A stretch of 24,000 bases of DNA, from positions 1,390,606 to 1,414,605 of the forward strand of contig CAVWQK010000005.1 of NCBI GenBank assembly GCA_963757145.1, written 5' to 3'. The translations under genes were made by a program, and so were the position numbers. This document shows, piece after piece, positions 10,632-22,701 of this stretch. The DNA is from an uncultured Acidobacteriota bacterium (lineage in GTDB: Bacteria > Acidobacteriota > Terriglobia > Acidiferrales > UBA7541). Position 1 is the first letter of the stretch. Every line of letters starts with the position of its first letter. The notes under the pieces are model-generated. The model saw nothing but the letters and a program-made list of their open reading frames with translations. It searched no databases and had not been told where the DNA came from.

Positions 10632-11177
10632 ATGGGGCGACTGACACACCGAACGGCTCCTGGATGGACCTACTTTGTAACCACCAAAGCATGGCAAAAT
10701 GTCGCAGTATTCCAAGTCGCAGCAATAGCGGAAGTTCTCCTTGCAAAATTGTGGGAATATCGAAACCGGAAAAACTACCCGCTCCACGAATTTGTTCTGA
10801 TGCCCAACCACTTGCACGTAGTGCTCACGCCCTCCAGCACAACAACTCTTCAGAAGGCCATGAACCTGATCAAAGGGAGGAGTTCTCATCCGATCAACCG
10901 CGTGCGTCAAAGCAATATGCAAATCTGGCAATCAGGTTTCCATGAATCCAGAATCCGAGATGCCGCCGACGATCAGAAAAGAGCCGACTACATCTGCTTT
11001 AACTCTGTCGTTGCCAAGCTAGTCGAGAATCCAATCGATGGACTCTTCAGTTCCGCCAGCGGAAAATACGAACTCGACCCGATTCCTCAGGGACTGAAGC
11101 TCCTCACGAACGCCTCCAAAGGTGTCGGACCTGAAGGTCCGACACCCACGGCGAACGTCAGATCGGCGGGCGCATGA
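10632..11177 (+). CDS. REP-associated tyrosine transposase (RAYT; IS200/IS605 TnpA-like Y1 HUH enzyme)
   Basis: HUH motif in LMPNHLHVVL, followed by WQSGFHESRI and the catalytic-Tyr region RADYICFNSV. Palindromic REP-like sequences flank the gene. The 3' end reads through the downstream REP (GVGPEGPTP) and overlaps the mutL ATG. Confidence 0.8.
   Translation: MGRLTHRTAPGWTYFVTTKAWQNVAVFQVAAIAEVLLAKLWEYRNRKNYPLHEFVLMPNHLHVVLTPSSTTTLQKAMNLIKGRSSHPINRVRQSNMQIWQSGFHESRIRDAADDQKRADYICFNSVVAKLVENPIDGLFSSASGKYELDPIPQGLKLLTNASKGVGPEGPTPTANVRSAGA
11121..11146. repeat. REP palindrome (11-bp stem, TGAA loop)
   Basis: GGTGTCGGACC-TGAA-GGTCCGACACC is perfectly self-complementary. It lies at the 3' end of the RAYT ORF. 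Confidence 0.7.
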
Positions 11178-13258
11178 GCCGCATCCGCATCCTCCCGGAA
11201 GCTGTCGCCAACCGCATCGCCGCGGGCGAAGTCGTCGAGCGCCCGGCCTCCGTCGTTAAAGAACTGCTGGAAAACGCCATCGACGCCGGTGCCACTGCGA
11301 TCCGCGTCGAAGTCGAATCCGGCGGCAAGCGCATGATCCGCGTCATCGACGACGGCCACGGCATGACGCACGACGACGCGCTCCTGGCGTTCGAGCGCCA
11401 CGCCACCAGCAAACTAAAATCCGCCGACGATCTCACATCGATCGCCACTCTAGGCTTCCGCGGTGAAGCCATGCCGACGATCGCCGCCGTCTCGCGCCTG
11501 CTCCTCGAAACGCGCGACGCCGTCGAGCCCGAAGGCGTCCGCGTAGAATTCGCCGCCGGAAAATTAGTCGGCGTAAAATCCGCCGGCCTCCCTGCAGGCA
11601 CCTCCGTCAGCGTCGCCGATCTTTTCTACAGCGTCCCCGCCCGCCGCAAATTCCTGAAATCCGAAACCACCGAGCTCGGCCACATCGCATCCCTAGTCAC
11701 CCACTACGCCCTCGCCAATCCTGGCAAACAATTCGTCCTTACCACGCCCACGCAACAAATCATCGACTGCGCTCCCGTCGAACGTCTCGCCGACCGCATC
11801 TACCAACTCTTCGGCAAGCAATCGCTCGACGAACTCGTCGAAATCCCCACCGCCAGCGCCGCGTTCCGCGCCGCAATCACCGAGCCCGAACTCGAACCCA
11901 ACCAAGAAAGCGCCCGCATCAGCGTCTACGGTTTTACGTCACGCCCCGAAATCCAGCGACCCAATCGCAACGGCATCTACGTGTTCGTCAATCGCCGTCT
12001 CGTGCGCGACCGCCTCATCCTGCACGCGATCCACGAAGCCTATCGCAACATTCTTCCCGGCAATGTTTTCCCCGCGACGCTCCTTTTCCTCGAAATGCCC
12101 TACGACGAAGTTGACGTCAACGTCCACCCCGCAAAAATCGAAGTCCGCTTCCGGCGCTCGCAATTCGTCCACGACTTCACGCGCGATTCAATCCGCCAAG
12201 TCCTGATGTCCGCGCGCTCCGTCCAAAGTTTCGCTGCTGCAGCCGCAGGCTCCGCCACCGCCGCGGCCATGAGTCCCGGCGTGTCCGCAGCCTACGCAGT
12301 CGCAAACGCCAGCTCAGCGCAACCCGCGATCGGCGACGGCACCGCAGGTAACGGCGCGTCGTCGGTGCCCAATCCCGCCAGCGCAACATTCGTCCCGCGC
12401 GCCGCAATCCCGGCGTTAGAAGACGTCGGCCTAGGTTCCGGCGCAGGCTCCGATAGCGGCTTCGACCTCACCTCCACCCCACTCCGCCCAGTCCCGCAAC
12501 GCTTCTCGTTCGAAACCGGCGAAACTTTCGCCGCCGGATCTGCGGTTGGTTCCGCATCGCCGCTGGCAGTGCCGGCATCCTTGACGGCTTCCGGCCCCGT
12601 GGGCTCCAACTGGGCCGCCAACTTCGCCGCTGCAAACGGAAACGGCGAAGCCCCCGCTCGCCTCCCACACCCCGACGAAATCGCCGACCTAAAGCCTTTG
12701 GGCCAAGTCAGCGCCAGTTTCATCATCGCCGTCAACGGCGAAGGACTCTGGATCGTCGACCAGCACGTAGCTCACGAACGCGTCCTCTTCGAGCAGCACC
12801 TCGAAGCCCGCCGCGCAGGCAAAGTCGAAGGCCAGCGCATGTTACTGCCGATGATTCTCGAACTGTCCCCCCGCCAGCTAGTCATCTACGAAAAAATCGC
12901 AGCCGAACTTTCCGAAAACGGCTTTGAAGTCGAACCGATGGGCCCACGCAGCGTAGCGATCCAAGCCGTCCCCGCAGGCGTCACCGGTAACGACGCCGAA
13001 AAACTCCTCACCGAAATCCTCGATGGCATTGAGCGCGAAAACGCCGCCATCTCCATCGAAACGCTGCAAGCCAAAATCGCCGCCAGCACCGCCTGTCACG
13101 CCGCGATCAAAGTCAACATGCCCCTCGATCAAACAAAAATGGAATGGCTCCTGGCCGCCCTAGCCAAAACTGACTGCCCCATGAGCTGCCCCCACGGCCG
13201 CCCAGTCGTCCTCCGCTACTCCGTAAAAGAAATCGAGCGCGCTTTCCACCGCATCTGA
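11174..13258 (+). CDS. mutL: DNA mismatch repair endonuclease MutL
   Basis: Has the GHKL ATPase N-terminus NRIAAGEVVERPASVVKELLENAIDAGA and a long Ala/Ser/Gly linker. The C-terminal endonuclease motifs are DQHVAHERVLFE and CPHGRP. Confidence 0.95.
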   Translation: MSRIRILPEAVANRIAAGEVVERPASVVKELLENAIDAGATAIRVEVESGGKRMIRVIDDGHGMTHDDALLAFERHATSKLKSADDLTSIATLGFRGEAMPTIAAVSRLLLETRDAVEPEGVRVEFAAGKLVGVKSAGLPAGTSVSVADLFYSVPARRKFLKSETTELGHIASLVTHYALANPGKQFVLTTPTQQIIDCAPVERLADRIYQLFGKQSLDELVEIPTASAAFRAAITEPELEPNQESARISVYGFTSRPEIQRPNRNGIYVFVNRRLVRDRLILHAIHEAYRNILPGNVFPATLLFLEMPYDEVDVNVHPAKIEVRFRRSQFVHDFTRDSIRQVLMSARSVQSFAAAAAGSATAAAMSPGVSAAYAVANASSAQPAIGDGTAGNGASSVPNPASATFVPRAAIPALEDVGLGSGAGSDSGFDLTSTPLRPVPQRFSFETGETFAAGSAVGSASPLAVPASLTASGPVGSNWAANFAAANGNGEAPARLPHPDEIADLKPLGQVSASFIIAVNGEGLWIVDQHVAHERVLFEQHLEARRAGKVEGQRMLLPMILELSPRQLVIYEKIAAELSENGFEVEPMGPRSVAIQAVPAGVTGNDAEKLLTEILDGIERENAAISIETLQAKIAASTACHAAIKVNMPLDQTKMEWLLAALAKTDCPMSCPHGRPVVLRYSVKEIERAFHRI

Positions 13259-18396: not shown

Positions 18397-18578
18397 TGCG
18401 GTTTCCCTGAACCTCGATTTCGCAAATTTGACGCGCCATGATAGCTCGAAAGGGATGCTGAATGGCAGGGCTCGCAGCGACCTCGCGGGGCGGGCCAGAG
18501 CGCACGGGAAGGCCACGGGGACTTCGCCCTGCGCTACAGGGTGGTGTGGTAGCTCGCGCATCGCGGAGGATTTCGGGG

Positions 18579-19112
18579 ATGAGCACGGCTCGGCTTGAGG
18601 CCTTCAGCGACGGGGTGATCGCGATCATCATCACCATCATGGTGCTGGAGCTGAAAGCTCCTGAAGGGCACACGTTCGCGGCGCTGGCGCAGATGACGGG
18701 AATTTTCCTGAGTTATGTTCTTAGCTTTGTTTATGTCGGGATTTACTGGAACAATCATCATCACATGCTGCATGCGTGTGAGACGGCGACAGGTGGGATT
18801 TTATGGGCGAACCTGCACTTGCTGTTCTGGCTGTCGCTGATTCCGTTTGCTACCGCTTGGCTGGGGCAGAATCATTTTACCTCGGCGCCAGCGGCGCTTT
18901 ATGGGATGGTGCTGCTGCCGCCGGCAATTGCGTGGGTGATTTTGCAGCAGCAGATGATCCGGTCGCAGAAGGGCGAGTCGCTGTTGAAAAAGGCGGTGGG
19001 GGAAGATTGGAAGGGAAAGTTGTCGGTAACGATGTATGTATTAGGGATCCTCGCGGCGTTTCGCGCACCGCGCATCTCAGTGATGCTATATACAGTCACG
19101 GGGATAATCTAG
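18579..19112 (+). CDS. TMEM175 (DUF1211) family potassium channel
   Basis: Signature RLEAFSDGVIAIIITIMVLEL (RxxxFSD) at the N-terminus and multiple TM segments. GGAGGA at 18566-18571 sits 7 nt before the ATG at 18579. The annotated upstream start at 18462 is Arg/Gly-rich and unlikely. Confidence 0.8.
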   Translation: MSTARLEAFSDGVIAIIITIMVLELKAPEGHTFAALAQMTGIFLSYVLSFVYVGIYWNNHHHMLHACETATGGILWANLHLLFWLSLIPFATAWLGQNHFTSAPAALYGMVLLPPAIAWVILQQQMIRSQKGESLLKKAVGEDWKGKLSVTMYVLGILAAFRAPRISVMLYTVTGII

Positions 19113-19428
19113 TTTGTGCCGGACAAGAGGATCGAGCGGGTTGTCACAGAGGAGAGGTAGGTGGGCGGTTTTGCCGTCGAGGAAACTTCAGGGGATAAAG
19201 CCCATCGTTCGTGGCTACAATTAATGTCGCGGTTGAAACCACGACCCACGAAGCTTCAGGCAGTGACGCGGTTAGATCGCGACCAACTAGGATTGGCGAT
19301 TTCAGAGTCAAAGGGCGTAACAGGCTGGCGGCCGTCGACGGTTTTCCGCCGAGGCGAATGCTAAGTACTGTCGAATTAACAAGTAGCGCGAAAAAGCCGT
19401 ACAAAATGCATGTTTTTTGAAATTGTGC

Positions 19429-19457
19429 TTGACAGAAACGGAAACTGCCTTTACTTT
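19429..19457 (+). promoter_or_regulatory. Putative sigma70-type promoter upstream of the Y-RNA-like cluster
   Basis: Consensus TTGACA at 19429-19434, a 17-nt spacer, then TACTTT at 19452-19457. It sits in a locally AT-rich stretch (19381-19440 is about 38% GC). Confidence 0.45.
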
Positions 19458-19660
19458 GAGGTTACCTCAGATGTATGCCTGCCTGACGGCAGGTCCTCAC
19501 TGAGCGAGAATAGCAAACGATGAGACATAAACAACTTAGCCTGACCGGACGCATGACATGGCGACAGGGTTTCGTCGATTGCTTTATCCCGCGATCGTAA
19601 ATCCTTCGACTTGAAGTGCAATCCGAAATAAAGCGTTACGGGGACAAGTATTTACATTTG

Positions 19661-19756
19661 TTTCCGGGATGGTGAAGTTCACAGCTACTTCTGGCAAAGC
19701 CGCAAGGCTCGGGTTCGACTCCCCGTTCTACTGTGAACGATTATTCCTCCCGGAGA
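19661..19756 (+). ncRNA. Y-RNA-like ncRNA unit 1 (T-loop-containing)
   Basis: Closing helix TTTCCGGGA(19661-19669)/TCCCGGAGA(19748-19756). Shared motifs are TGGTGAAG (19670-19677) and CGATTATTCC (19738-19747). A second helix is TTCACAG(19678-19684)/CTGTGAA(19731-19737). Inside are GCC-GCAA-GGC (a GNRA hairpin) and a T-arm-like GGG-TTCGACT-CCC. TTTT lies at 19760-19763. Confidence 0.55.
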
Positions 19757-19877
19757 AGGTTTTCGGCCGCGATCGATTGATTTGATGTTGTTGTGGGGCG
19801 CAAGTTGATCCCGCTCTCAGCAAGCGGTCGTGGTGTGTCCGCTGGAGGTGTGTTGGGAGAGAGGAAAGCTTTTGATT

Positions 19878-20009
19878 TTGCGGCGTGGTGAAGGCGCGAG
19901 ATACATCGGCCCCATTTGTCGCGGGTTCGATTCCTGCCGGTGGCGAAAGCTGCCGTAGCTCAGTGGCAGAGCGATGGGGAAAAACTCGTACCGATTATTC
20001 CCGCCGCAA
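19878..20009 (+). ncRNA. yrlA: YrlA-type Y RNA with circularly permuted tRNA-like domain
   Basis: Closing helix TTGCGGCG(19878-19885)/CGCCGCAA(20002-20009), with TGGTGAAG (19886-19893) and CGATTATTCC (19992-20001). The inner elements, in order: CCCCAT (19910-15); 5-nt variable TTGTC; T-arm GCGGG-TTCGATT-CCTGC (19921-37); 7-bp acceptor-like stem CGGTGGC-GAAA-GCTGCCG (19938-55); TA; D-arm GCTC-AGTGGCA-GAGC (19958-72); G; ATGGGG (19974-79), which pairs with CCCCAT. Confidence 0.8.
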
Positions 20010-20058
20010 TTGTGACGAACGCGGCGCAGGCGAATGTATGCAGGTTTGTGTTGCGGAA

Positions 20059-20144
20059 AACCGGGATGGTGGAGCGTGGAGATACTTCTCGACACGAAGC
20101 GGGGAGCGAAACCCCACAACTCCGCTCGTTTGTTCCTCCCGGTT
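20059..20144 (+). ncRNA. Y-RNA-like ncRNA unit 3 (no tRNA-like module; YrlB-like)
   Basis: Closing helix AACCGGGA(20059-20066)/TCCCGGTT(20137-20144). Motif variants are TGGTGGAG (20067-74) and CGTTTGTTCC (20127-36). An extended helix GAGCG-t-GGAG/CTCC-GCTC encloses two small hairpins (CTTC..GAAG and GGGG-AGCGAAA-CCCC). Confidence 0.5.
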
Positions 20145-20152
20145 GATTCTGG

Positions 20153-20191
20153 CCGGCGCGAATCGCGAATCTAGCGAGCGATTCGCGCCGG
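20153..20191 (+). other. Perfect 14-bp GC-rich hairpin between the Y-like RNAs and the coding genes
   Basis: CCGGCGCGAATCGC(20153-20166), an 11-nt loop, then GCGATTCGCGCCGG(20178-20191). There is no downstream T-run, so it is not a canonical intrinsic terminator. It may be a processing, stability or protein-binding element. Confidence 0.6.
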
Positions 20192-20266
20192 AGCTGGGGA
20201 TGTCCGATGTTGAAATGAAAACGTGAGAACGGATTTACGACACGAGACAGAAAGGAGGACGCGCAA

Positions 20267-20527
20267 ATGGAAGAATGGAGCTCATTGCAGGGCCCGGTGT
20301 TGATGGTGAACGGCAAGTTGACGCTGATGATCCCGCTGGAAGACGGAGGGGCCGAGTTGATGGATTGTTCGCGCGGCATCTCCGAAGTGGAAGGGCCGTG
20401 CCTCAAGATCGCCATTCCGGATTGGCTTGCCGGGATGCTGCGGATCGATGAGGGCGACATCGTCTGCGTCAGCAATTGGGATGGGAGGCTGCACATTCAG
20501 CCGAGTCAGGCGCGCGTGGTGCAGTGA
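20267..20527 (+). CDS. Small hypothetical protein with AbrB/MazE/SpoVT-like motif
   Basis: 86 aa. Strong RBS AGGAGG (20253-20258) 8 nt before the ATG. The C-terminal half LKIAIPDWLAGMLRIDEGDIVCVSNWDGRLHIQP follows the SpoVT-AbrB pattern (..IP..l...l.i.eGd.v.v....g.l.i.P). The N-terminal half has a second GKLTLMIP element. The stop is 45 nt before the rsr ATG. Confidence 0.55.
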   Translation: MEEWSSLQGPVLMVNGKLTLMIPLEDGGAELMDCSRGISEVEGPCLKIAIPDWLAGMLRIDEGDIVCVSNWDGRLHIQPSQARVVQ

Positions 20528-20572
20528 GAGCTGAAGGAGTAGTGGATTTTGTGGGAAAGGAGGAAGGGTGAG

Positions 20573-21913
20573 ATGGCGAAGATGAACGTTTGGAAGCGGA
20601 TGTTTCCTGGAGCGGTTGCGCGGACGCACGAAGCAGCGGTGGCGCAGCGGGCCGATGCGAAAACCGAACTTCGGCGCAGCGTGTTGACCTGCTTGCTGTG
20701 GGAAGACACGTTTTACGAAAAGGGGAGCGCGATTGCGAAGCGTATCGCGGAGCTTGTGGCAAAGACGGAGCCCGCGGACGTTGCGGCTCTCGCTTGCGAG
20801 GCACGCGATGCGATGCAGCTCCGTCATGCGCCGCTCTTCCTCGTGCGCGAACTCGCGCGCCGCAAGGGCGCAGGTCCGCTCGTGGCGGATGCGCTCGAGC
20901 GGGTGATCCAGAGGGCCGATGAACTCGGTGAGTTCGTTGCGCTCTACTGGAAAGAGCGGAAGCAGCCGCTTTCGGCGGGTTCGAAGCGCGGGCTGGCGCG
21001 GGCGTTCACGAAGTTCGACGCCTACCAGCTGGCGAAGTACGACCGCGAAGCGGTGGTCAAACTCCGCGACGTGCTGTTCCTGTGCCACGCGAAACCGAAG
21101 AATGCTGAGCAGGCGGCCGTTTGGAAGAATCTCGTCGAGAACACGCTCGACTCTCCCGATACCTGGGAGGTTGCATTGTCCGCAGGGAAGGACAAGCGCG
21201 AGAATTTCGAACGGTTGCTGCGCGAAGGCAAGCTGGGCGGCATGGCTGTCCTGCGAAACCTGCGGTTGATGCTGGCAGCGGGCGTCGAGCCGTCGCTCAT
21301 TCGCGAGCGTCTCGAAAAAGGCGTGGCGCGGGCGTTGCCGTTTCGATTCGTGACGGCAGCCCGGCACGCGCCGAAGCTGGAGGAATCGCTCGAGAAAGCG
21401 ATGCTTCGCGGCATCTCCGGATTGGGAGAGCTTGCGGGATCGACCGGGCTGGTTGTGGACGTGTCCGGCTCGATGGACGCAGCACTCTCGAACGGGAGCG
21501 AGACTACGCGCATCGATGCGGCGTCGGGTTTGGCGATTTTGCTTCGCGAAAAGGCCGAGGAGTTTTGTATTGCGACCTTTTCCGACGCATGCGTTGAACT
21601 GCCGCCCCGCCGCGGGTTCGCTTTGCGAGACGCGATCTCGGGTTCGCAGGCGCACTCGGGGACCTACCTCCAGCGCGCGCTGGAACAGCTGCGAGAAAAG
21701 CGCGAATGGCGCGACCTCTCGCGGCTCATCGTGATCACCGACGAACAGTCGCACGACGGAATTTTGCCGGCGTGGACCGAACGGGCGTACGTCGTGAACG
21801 TGGCACCGTACAAGTACGGGATCAGCTACGGGAACCGGTGGACGCACGTGGACGGTTGGTCGGAGCGGGTTGTGGACTACATCGCGGCGGTGGAGGAAGA
21901 AGCTGCGGCGTAA
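20573..21913 (+). CDS. rsr: Ro60 orthologue (Rsr): TROVE domain plus C-terminal vWA domain
   Basis: TROVE-like blocks are present: LLWEDTFYEKG, DAMQLRHAPLFLVRELA, KRGLARAFTKF..YQLAKYDRE..KLRDVLFLCHAKPK. The vWA MIDAS motifs are VVDVSGSMD and LIVITDEQSHD. The start is chosen at the ATG at 20573 behind AGGAGG (20558-20563). The ORF track begins at a TTG at 20549. Confidence 0.85.
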   Translation: MAKMNVWKRMFPGAVARTHEAAVAQRADAKTELRRSVLTCLLWEDTFYEKGSAIAKRIAELVAKTEPADVAALACEARDAMQLRHAPLFLVRELARRKGAGPLVADALERVIQRADELGEFVALYWKERKQPLSAGSKRGLARAFTKFDAYQLAKYDREAVVKLRDVLFLCHAKPKNAEQAAVWKNLVENTLDSPDTWEVALSAGKDKRENFERLLREGKLGGMAVLRNLRLMLAAGVEPSLIRERLEKGVARALPFRFVTAARHAPKLEESLEKAMLRGISGLGELAGSTGLVVDVSGSMDAALSNGSETTRIDAASGLAILLREKAEEFCIATFSDACVELPPRRGFALRDAISGSQAHSGTYLQRALEQLREKREWRDLSRLIVITDEQSHDGILPAWTERAYVVNVAPYKYGISYGNRWTHVDGWSERVVDYIAAVEEEAAA

Positions 21914-21951
21914 TTTTTGTTTGCAATGTCCGTAGAAGAAAAATAATTGGC

Positions 21952-21979
21952 CGGCGCGACGAAGAGATTCGTCGCGCCG
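21952..21979 (+). terminator. Terminator-like hairpin downstream of rsr
   Basis: 12-bp perfect stem CGGCGCGACGAA-GAGA-TTCGTCGCGCCG, 38 nt after the rsr stop. The trailing CTCTATT is only weakly T-rich. Confidence 0.55.
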
Positions 21980-21981
21980 CT

Positions 21982-22701
21982 CTATTGGATGGGAGCGATC
22001 TTCCGACTCTGGGCGCTGCATCGGCTGGCAGATGCTAGCGGCTTCGCGGCCTTTGGCCTCGCAGTCGGCGCTTCGCGGGTGCTGTGAATTTCGCCGCGGA
22101 CGGCGACAAGCCAGGAGTTGATAAGGGGCAGCTTGTAGACGAGTGCCGGGGGCCCTTTCAAGAGTTCTTCGACGGCGTCGTAATTGCCGGGCGATGCGAC
22201 TAGAGGAAGCAGTCGCATGCCGTTGCCAGAGCCGTCGTCTTTACCGCCATGGCGACCGGCGATGGCGGCGCATCGGCGGGTCCCAGCCGCGGAAATCGAC
22301 TTTCCGAGATTTCACGAGTGGCAGAAGCGGCTCCGACTTGGGGGGCCGACATAACCGTCGAGCGCGAGCGTGTAGCCTTCGTTGCAAAGCTCGGCGCAGA
22401 GCTGCACGACTTCCTGCGACGGTGTGACGCTTTCGAAGATTTCGATCATGACCTGATCGGGTGGGAGGAGGCGTGCGGTGCCCCGCTCGAGCGCGAGCTT
22501 GTCGAGATTGATGAATGCTTTCGCGTGGCCGGTGAGCGGTTGCAGGCCGAAGGCCATGGTGGAATCGACGATCAGGCTGCCGCTGGCTTCTTTATAGTGG
22601 TGAAAGACATTTTCACTGCCGGCGCGAAAGAGGGGCTCGTAGGCGATAAGTTTTAATTGGTCGTCGAAGATCGGCTGACGGGCGAAGAATTTTTCGTGCA
22701 T
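21982..22701 (-). pseudogene. Decayed EAL-HDOD signalling protein gene (frameshifted, internally deleted, 3'-truncated)
   Basis: The N-terminus MHEKFFARQPIFDDQLKLIAYEPLFR...GYTLALDGYV is typical of EAL-HDOD proteins. The frame breaks at the C-run near 22337-22343, after which PKSEPLLPLVKSRKVDFRG continues in another frame. A third frame (ORF 21982..22218) carries the HDOD-start-like AVEELLKGPPALVYKLPLINSW..RGEIHSTREA. The AEKVE/QGYFF part of EAL and most of HDOD are absent. Confidence 0.6.

Follow-up and report, generated by a model that had tools for sequence, protein, structure and literature searches.

We describe a chromosomal Ro60 (rsr) locus in a 24-kb stretch of DNA, hereafter the window, from an uncultured soil bacterium of the Acidiferrales (Acidobacteriota, Terriglobia). 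Three tandem Y-RNA-like units built on one plan lie upstream of the gene for the Ro60 homologue, Rsr, and on its strand. It is probable, in our judgement, that they are Y RNAs bound by Rsr, docked by an invariant module and fitted with variable parts that would serve as adaptors or gates. Comparison with related loci shows the trio to be a shortened version of an array, with up to six members, that is found throughout the order. The Ro60/Y-RNA kind of system is already known, and the locus extends it, being neither new nor mobile. What is new is the order-wide collinear array of up to six paralogues, three of which are kept in the window, together with a variant of the presumed docking motif under the Rfam threshold, a conserved putative promoter with its leader, and a clade-specific small open reading frame (ORF). 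Our literature search, which did not extend to the species list of the 2014 YrlA survey, found no paper tying Ro60 or Y RNAs to Acidobacteria in this sense. The comparison set comprises 60 rsr loci from species-representative genomes, nearly all of them metagenome-assembled genomes of Acidobacteriota labelled Acidoferrum, Acidiferrum or Acidoferrales; counts out of 61 refer to these loci plus the window. Their Rsr proteins are 68-89% identical to that of the window. Rsr has thousands of relatives, and the best 120 among the matches listed are 82-100% identical.

Three units on one plan and their relatives

No convincing gene is found between the TMEM175 gene and the next credible ORF (19112-20266); the interval holds three plus strand units instead (Table 1). 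In each, the paired 5' and 3' ends form a closing stem of 8-9 bp, which is followed by a bulged U, a GG:CC pair and an internal loop of UGAA opposite GNNNRUU. The flanking sequence TGGTGRAG occurs in the window at 19670, 19886 and 20067 only, and CGWTTRTTCC at 19738, 19992 and 20127 only. RNAfold places a single bulged U and then the GG:CC pair in every unit, with z scores of -2.3 to -2.9 against shuffled sequences (-2.86 for unit 3). A preliminary description, made from the letters of the window alone, had set out the stems, flanks, bulged T and GG:CC pair of this plan, in a gap that it judged to lack convincing coding potential and ahead of a co-oriented Ro60 homologue, and on all these points it was right.

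Inside the common frame the units differ. Unit 1 has a second helix, a small hairpin and a T-arm-like element (GGGUUCGACUCCC), the T arm being its only tRNA-like part. Unit 2 carries a tRNA-like domain composed of a T arm (GCGGGUUCGAUUCCUGC), a closed acceptor-like stem and a D arm (GUAGCUCAGUGGCAGAGC), and it alone shows the full set of elements that define this domain in YrlA. Unit 3 consists of the closing module (GGUGGAG) and two plain hairpins, with no tRNA-like element.

Table 1. Features of the Ro60 locus, by position in the window (RNA, promoter and hairpin entries are predictions)
Feature	Position	Strand	Details
Sigma-70-type promoter, predicted	19429-19457	+	-35 TTGACA 19429-19434; 17-nt spacer; -10 TACTTT 19452-19457
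Structured leader RNA, about 160 nt	19464-19624	+	Between promoter and unit 1
Unit 1, class A, 96 nt	19661-19756	+	Stem TTTCCGGGA/TCCCGGAGA, 19661-69 / 19748-56, 9 bp with one G-U
Unit 2, class B, YrlA-type, 132 nt	19878-20009	+	Stem TTGCGGCG/CGCCGCAA, 19878-85 / 20002-09
Unit 3, class E, 86 nt	20059-20144	+	Stem AACCGGGA/TCCCGGTT, 20059-66 / 20137-44
GC-rich hairpin	20153-20191	+	CCGGCGCGAATCGC / GCGATTCGCGCCGG, 14 bp, no U tract; just 3' of unit 3
ORF86, clade-specific small protein, 86 aa	20267-20527	+	Conserved between array and rsr
rsr, Ro60 homologue, 446 aa	20573-21913	+	TROVE/HEAT-repeat region and vWA domain
Hairpin with 19-nt arms	21945-21986	+	84% complementary, no U tract; 3' of rsr stop codon
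Decayed EAL/HDOD-type gene	22063-22701	-	Matches residues 8-265 of a 408-aa protein

YrlA-like RNAs are known from 254 bacteria and 22 phages, in which they lie no more than 4 kb from rsr and share its strand; near the 5' end they bear the motif GNCGAAN0-1G, overlapping the Rsr-binding site (PMC4201824). Each species studied has at least two bacterial Y RNAs, one of them tRNA-like, and transcription can be polycistronic, as it is for the Deinococcus pair (PMC4201824). By their sequences the window units fit these published traits except in the motif, in whose place, at the same position and with the same length, stand GGUGAAG (units 1 and 2) or GGUGGAG (unit 3). Their lengths, and the stem beside a large internal loop, agree with the 80-130 nucleotides (nt) and paired ends of bacterial Y RNAs. 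Their 3' ends lie 429-817 nt upstream of rsr on the plus strand, and units are found within 4 kb of rsr and on its strand in 58 of the 60 related loci as well, the other two being truncated.

Rfam has no match in the window at its gathering thresholds. When the threshold is relaxed, the YrlA model (RF02553) covers unit 2 from end to end (39.9 bits, E 4.9e-7) and has no match to units 1 and 3; the covariance search that the preliminary description had proposed finds a YrlA match in unit 2, short of the gathering score of 69, and leaves the other two unmatched. In related loci, units of the classes that we call B, C and F (see below) reach 30-42 bits with the same model (E 1e-3 to 5e-7). A covariance model built for class B, the class of unit 2, has exactly three matches in the window, which are the three units (unit 1 at 42.1 bits, E 1.1e-6; unit 3 at 29.2 bits), and none elsewhere on either strand. 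Among all loci it has 187 matches, every one on the rsr strand and upstream of rsr, and in 694 kb of unrelated viral DNA, used as a control, it finds one genuine YrlA pair only. A 15-mer from unit 2 had given chance matches in 120 viral contigs, of which 80 were tested with this model; only one unrelated contig (L114, IMGVR_UViG_3300009545_000021) has real YrlA-like RNAs, two in tandem at 11812-12092, away from the 15-mer match, with canonical GACGAAUG and GCGAAUG motifs. Directly after them, at 12144-12938, that contig encodes a protein of 264 amino acids (aa) with a MIDAS-like DRSQS, apparently of vWA type, and no TROVE region.

A composite pattern of stem, bulge, GGTGRRG...TTCC and stem recovers 127 units upstream of rsr on its strand in the window and the 60 loci, and only 12 weak matches (nine on the plus and three on the minus strand) elsewhere in 638 kb. 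Sorted by their terminal stems and lengths, the units make up six classes, whose order in any locus is always a subsequence of A-B-C-D-E-F. Class-specific profile hidden Markov models (nhmmer) give 661 raw matches, all on the rsr strand, and every unit counted in the resulting census is upstream of rsr; the linkage to rsr is exclusive both in position and in strand. With the window included, the census comprises six units in nine loci, five in 18, four in 17, three in ten, two in four, one in a single locus and none in two, and the order is collinear throughout. The window, with A-B-E, is one of the ten three-unit loci. Its nearest relatives (L001, L003) carry A-B-E-ORF86-F and the window has only 46 nt between ORF86 and rsr, which indicates that class F has been lost there. 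The distance from array to rsr ranges from 46 to about 1900 nt.

How well are the folds conserved? In the module beside the stem, examined in 126 units, the bulged U is present in 125 and the closing G:C in all 126, while the GG:CC pair and the loop of UGAA opposite G-N-N-N-R-U-U are invariant; the conservation in related genomes on which the preliminary description had staked its motifs is there. At each position of the closing stem the same units use between two and four kinds of base pair; position 2, for instance, is GC, CG, UA or AU. The class B alignment (29 orthologues, 39 pairs) has 96.6% of its cells paired, as against 33-48% in slid controls. Compensatory changes affect 13 pairs and 62 cells, among them pairs of the T arm, the acceptor-like stem and helix 2, with all three helices of the tRNA-like domain represented, and none of 500 shuffles reached the observed values. 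For class E (27 orthologues, 20 pairs) the figures are 96.2% and 48-58%, with compensatory change in eight pairs and again no shuffle in 500 reaching the observed values. The class A alignment (29 orthologues, 23 pairs) has 97.3% of cells paired and 31-55% in the controls. Covariation supports the predicted folds of classes B and E; that of class A, near-invariant in sequence, is consistent with the data rather than independently proven. The compensatory variation claimed from the window is real when paralogues are compared and, in the case of units 2 and 3, also among orthologues, and the expectation that the helices would covary across homologous loci holds for classes B and E, while class A varies too little to bear it out.

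Several features of the array stand beside this argument. Class A orthologues number 29 loci by pattern search and about 50 by profile hidden Markov model, and an 18-mer of this class occurs in more than 120 metagenome contigs, so the unit is widespread. These contigs are otherwise of soil type; five low-coverage ENA contigs labelled 'human gut metagenome' (L199, L207, L210, L213, L254) also carry it, and may be contaminated or mislabelled. Classes A and B are separated by a spacer of about 115 nt (19757-19877 in the window; compared in 17 loci), which contains a conserved box, GCUAnGGGUGUG (GCTGGAGGTGTG in the window), and then a purine-rich run; the box could be a promoter inside the array or a signal for processing. 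Class D, which the window lacks and 26 loci possess (L005 3921-4099, L011 3003-3146 and 24 others), resembles a complete tRNA cloverleaf circularly permuted at the D loop: a GAGC D-stem strand, an anticodon-like hairpin, a T arm (GCGAG UUCGAUU CUCGC), a closed acceptor-like stem, with a 38-nt insertion in some units, and a GCUC strand. GAGC:GCUC pairing is possible in 25-26 of the 26 units and shows no variation. A conserved hairpin, GAGCACAGCC...GGCUGUGCU, lies 3' of class D units in the relatives and is distinct from the GGCCGGCGCGA hairpins described below. In the relatives, all that Rfam reports at its gathering thresholds are tRNA matches (L005 3720-3856, L019 3795-3931, L018 4313-4443 and others), and these are artefacts: each is about 135 nt long and bridges two neighbouring units, running from the D arm of the first to the T arm of the second.

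Putative promoter, leader and flanking hairpins

Upstream of unit 1, CTTGACAG, a 17-nt spacer and TACTTT (TACCTT in two cases) stand at the homologous place in 48 of the 61 loci. From this conservation and from its geometry we take the TTGACA-17-TACTTT element to be a promoter. A generic scan for promoters and terminators missed it because its -10 hexamer fits the consensus at three of six positions only; the terminators returned by that scan were at chance level. A search for sigma-54 promoters likewise gave matches at chance level, none of them upstream on the plus strand. The block 19361-19600 retains 67-83% DNA identity in more than 40 loci. The leader that follows the promoter has no Rfam match, and its alignment (39 sequences, 19 pairs) has 97.7% of cells paired, compared with 28-55% in slid controls, with 12 compensatory cells. 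Alternative pairings, GCGUGA:UCACGC or GUCGU with ACGCGAC, can be drawn within it. A 26-codon ORF in the leader (19520-19600, MRHKQLSLTGRMTWRQGFVDCFIPRS) keeps its length in 34 of the 39 sequences and starts with ATG, TTG or GTG; we rejected it as a gene, since neither codon positions nor synonymous changes give a coding signal, and it is probably not coding. The conserved promoter and leader (19429-19624) had escaped the preliminary description, as had the six-member order-wide array.

At the other end of the array, hairpins of the same sequence family as the GC-rich one behind unit 3 recur 3' of class E units in at least 15 other loci; the window hairpin may act as a terminator, a processing site or a stabiliser. 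The hairpin behind rsr probably marks the end of the operon. The two hairpins, which bracket ORF86 and rsr, open with the same 11-mer, GGCCGGCGCGA (20151-20161 and 21949-21959). One promoter and a processed polycistronic precursor would be the simplest reading of this layout.

Rsr, ORF86 and the chromosomal setting

The protein encoded by rsr matches the Pfam TROVE family (PF05731) at E 2.7e-15, with 56.9 bits against a cutoff of 23. For the vWA domain the Pfam scores stay under their cutoffs (VWA_2, 26.1 bits against 27; vWA_Ro60, 18.4 against 27.7). AlphaFold2 (AF2) predicts the alpha/beta fold of a C-terminal vWA domain for residues 287-445, and the MIDAS motif (DxSxS), which reads DVSGS at residues 296-300, shows little or no variation among 39 homologues. 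In phmmer searches of solved structures the sole sequence matches are to the Ro60 of phage phiLo (9KOP/9L5Y), aligned over the full length at E 4.7e-25, and the 13 best Foldseek matches of its low-confidence model in the PDB are all Ro60 or Rsr proteins (phage, Xenopus, human and Deinococcus; E 3.7e-14 to 1e-7).

ORF86 is preceded by an AAGGAGG ribosome-binding site and is found between array and rsr in 39 of the 60 related loci, at 40-79% identity. Its 263 homologues are each about 85 aa long, and none has a specific name. The AF2 model (pLDDT 74.7) shows a two-fold beta-beta-alpha-beta repeat. Among 43 members, Pfam matches below threshold are to UFD1_N1 in all 43 (best E 0.004) and to MazE_antitoxin in 18 (best E 0.0011); Foldseek aligns 41-48 residues with MazE at 27-31% identity and E >0.5. 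The preliminary description had pointed to a small AbrB-like ORF: the ORF is there, and its AbrB likeness is a weak one, seen in matches below threshold. The modelled fold is possibly a cradle-loop beta-barrel of the AbrB/MazE or double-psi kind, and one might speculate, purely as one possibility, that ORF86 is a DNA-binding regulator of the operon. In 15 of the 60 loci, though not in the window, ORF86 and rsr are separated by a further conserved gene, of about 280 aa (L011 4091-4930, L013 3980-4930 and 13 others). Its product has no match in Pfam, NCBIfam, PADLOC or the PDB. We set it aside as the 'missing effector', as it belongs to no matched family and is not in the window, and regard it as a candidate accessory factor of the system. 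A defence system was also considered and rejected: PADLOC has no match for Rsr, ORF86 or the accessory protein.

The upstream genes of the window encode SecA, an Mrp-type ATPase, HisRS, AspRS, MutL, FabI, Cmk, DUF885, an esterase and TMEM175, and the downstream gene encodes Rho. rho lies downstream of the rsr locus in 57 of the 60 relatives; TMEM175 and the esterase are upstream in the four closest relatives only, DUF885 being the upstream neighbour in others. The locus is thus a stable feature of the chromosome. The suggestion that the module is self-contained and possibly mobile finds no support in this synteny with rho, in the housekeeping neighbourhood or in IMG/VR, where close relatives of the window Rsr protein were looked for and none found. 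The preliminary description also remarked on the lack of rtcB, rtcA and rtcR, and no Rtc gene is present among the larger ORFs of the window. It overstated the case in treating the want of a known partner enzyme as a distinguishing trait: PNPase, the Deinococcus partner, is not encoded at the rsr locus either (PMC4201824). Lack of rtc genes, for its part, is ordinary for rsr loci.

The destroyed neighbouring gene that had been reported is confirmed as the EAL/HDOD-type remnant of Table 1, which has an in-frame stop and an internal deletion and has lost its C-terminal third. The gene is intact in many relatives bearing the same Ro60/Y-RNA module (among them L011, L020, L024, L047 and L053), and fragments in several other loci record independent decay; since it stays intact beside the module so often, the module is not the cause of its neighbour's decay. 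A plus strand ORF at 22249-22656 is probably an antisense artefact of this pseudogene. Farther upstream, between AspRS and MutL, lies an IS200-like Y1 transposase ORF (10632-11177; Pfam Y1_Tnp, E 2.6e-10), whose end overlaps the start of MutL by 4 nt. The called starts of the divergent esterase (minus) and TMEM175 (plus) genes overlap by 100 nt (18462-18561); the Pfam match of TMEM175 begins at residue 44, and its true start is therefore probably further downstream.

Proposed role and relation to known systems

What would such RNAs do for Rsr? We propose that the sigma-70-type promoter probably drives a single precursor containing the leader, the three Y RNAs, ORF86 and rsr, and that each Y RNA is closed by pairing of its ends. 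The adjoining module of bulged U, GG:CC pair, UGAA/GNNNRUU loop and closing G:C would correspond in this lineage to the GNCGAA(N)G / GGUCCGA site by which Ro60 rings hold Y RNAs, and most likely docks the 446-aa Rsr. The inner parts, a T arm only, a full YrlA-type tRNA mimic and two plain hairpins, could then be exchangeable modules. As adaptors they might tether Rsr to partners, with PNPase as the default by analogy with Deinococcus, Salmonella and phage phiLo, whose Ro60 binds two upstream Yrl RNAs and recruits the host PNPase (PMC12135203); as gates they might control entry to the Rsr cavity. Either way they would tune the decay of structured RNA under stress. The sequences themselves establish the architecture of the units, their exclusive linkage to rsr, the conserved folds and the homology of the protein to Ro60; transcription, processing to free RNAs, binding by Rsr and the identity of the partners are the steps that we infer.

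A number of observations weigh against this proposal. The locus belongs to an uncultured lineage known here from sequence alone. No unit reaches the YrlA gathering score (best 39.9-41.6 against 69 bits), the presumed docking motif carries U for the published C in 126 of 126 units, and covariation in class A, that of unit 1, is almost nil, with six compensatory cells. The predicted Rsr is a short, divergent Ro60 homologue; it scores 20.6 bits against a cutoff of 900 with the NCBIfam Rsr equivalog model (NF041674), of which it is not a member. Its AF2 model (pLDDT 65, pTM 0.42) is too poor to show a closed ring, and the Foldseek TM scores are about 0.3 because the model is not closed. Finally, the rsr mRNA may include the units in its 5' portion, where a cis-acting role is conceivable.

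This last point leads to the alternative that the units are elements of a long rsr mRNA leader, serving autoregulation through Rsr binding, or processing and stability, and never freed as Y RNAs. All of them do share a strand with ORF86-rsr and stand between it and a single conserved promoter, with a conserved structured leader ahead of them and no canonical U-tract terminator between them. A fixed regulatory geometry, however, would not tolerate one to six units at 46 to about 1900 nt from rsr, or an extra gene in 15 loci; strong hairpins set the array apart from ORF86; and in Salmonella and Deinococcus, Y RNAs that are co-transcribed with their neighbours are then processed to free RNAs (PMC4201824). 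We consider a purely cis-acting role unlikely. It is a good deal harder to believe that the link to Rsr is mere neighbourhood and that the RNAs serve ORF86 or tRNA-handling enzymes, even with ORF86 conserved beside the array in 39 of 60 loci and with tRNA-like arms, which tRNA enzymes recognise in YrlA (PMC4201824), in classes A-D and F. Arrays occur in loci without a detected ORF86 (for example L007, L014, L018 and L029), class E lacks a tRNA-like part altogether, and what stays invariant in every unit is the Ro-type portion, with its stem, bulge and loop, rather than the tRNA-like one.

Least credible of all is an origin of the units as decayed or permuted tRNA genes, or as REP-like repeats, that lack a function in their own right. 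They do contain T-arm and D-arm sequences, the Rfam tRNA model matches stretches across two adjacent units, and the window does contain an IS200/Y1-type transposase gene; yet ARAGORN finds no tRNA gene in the window, the Rfam matches are the bridging artefacts already described, and neither the rest of the window nor the flanks of the related loci contain any further units. Moreover, the six classes keep their order and their compensatory pairs across genomes as diverged as the 68-89% identity of their Rsr proteins implies.

If Rsr-bound Y RNAs are the right interpretation, the array invites a wider and more tentative one, which taken as a whole we hold to be possible rather than probable. Acidiferrales Rsr might be a hub for many adaptor RNAs, served by an ancestral collinear array of six paralogues behind one promoter and leader. 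Each paralogue would join the common Rsr-docking module to a different effector module, class D being a permuted cloverleaf mimic, and lineages would prune the set, the window keeping A, B and E. Bacteria would then have evolved larger sets of Y RNAs than vertebrates, and the record of which classes each genome has or lacks could reveal the partners of each module. Two questions for the Ro60 field are what binds the tRNA-like and other effector modules of Y RNAs in bacteria, and for what reason a cell retains more than one Y RNA. The loci offer a natural experiment, missed by Rfam thresholds, in which six classes with an identical docking module and differing inner modules occur in varied combinations in at least 60 genomes. 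The pattern allows comparative inference, through genes that co-vary with each class, and supplies compact constructs for binding studies. For annotation, it means that Acidobacteriota Ro60 loci carry unannotated non-coding RNA arrays able to yield false tRNA calls.

Among known systems, unit 2 is closest to YrlA (RF02553) as described in Salmonella Typhimurium, Mycobacterium smegmatis and more than 250 other species (PMC4201824). The two share the 5'/3' stem, the purine-rich motif near the 5' end and the YUAY element, followed in unit 2, and in classes B, C and F of the relatives, by T arm, closed acceptor-like stem and D arm; unit 2, too, lies less than 4 kb from rsr, upstream and on its strand. 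They differ in score (30-42 bits against 69), in the motif (GGUGAAG where YrlA has GNCGAAG) and in number, since a locus here can hold up to four tRNA-like paralogues plus two or three units that are not tRNA-like. The Rsr/Yrn1/Yrn2 system of Deinococcus radiodurans, which forms RYPER with PNPase, likewise has several Y RNAs upstream of rsr in a polycistronic precursor, presumed in our case, with one that bears a T-arm-like element only (here unit 1); it too has no rtc genes at the locus, and its partner enzyme is encoded elsewhere (PMC4201824). D. radiodurans has two RNAs, the window three and its relatives up to six. The window further differs in having no tRNA gene inside the array, an Rsr of 446 aa as opposed to the 496 residues of the solved chain 2NVO, and in addition a conserved small ORF and a structured leader; any PNPase partnership would rest on analogy.

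The Ro60 of Thermus phage phiLo (PMC12135203; 9KOP, 9L5Y) is the closest solved relative of the window protein, and there, too, stem-loop-stem Y-like RNAs (Yrl1 and Yrl2) lie upstream of the Ro60 gene. That system is phage-borne and has the motif CGAA, whereas the window locus is chromosomal and syntenic. Salmonella rsr-yrlBA-rtcBA, under RtcR and sigma-54, also unites rsr with Y RNAs, two in number, in one operon. The window differs from it in having neither rtcB, rtcA and rtcR nor a sigma-54 promoter, with a putative sigma-70-type promoter instead, and in placing the RNAs upstream of rsr, not downstream. Vertebrate Y RNAs, finally, are paralogues (two to four per species) that have a Ro-binding stem and its bulged nucleotide in common and loop modules that vary from one to another, as in the units here; they are independent Pol III genes, unlike the present collinear array, which stands behind one predicted bacterial promoter and includes some tRNA-like modules.

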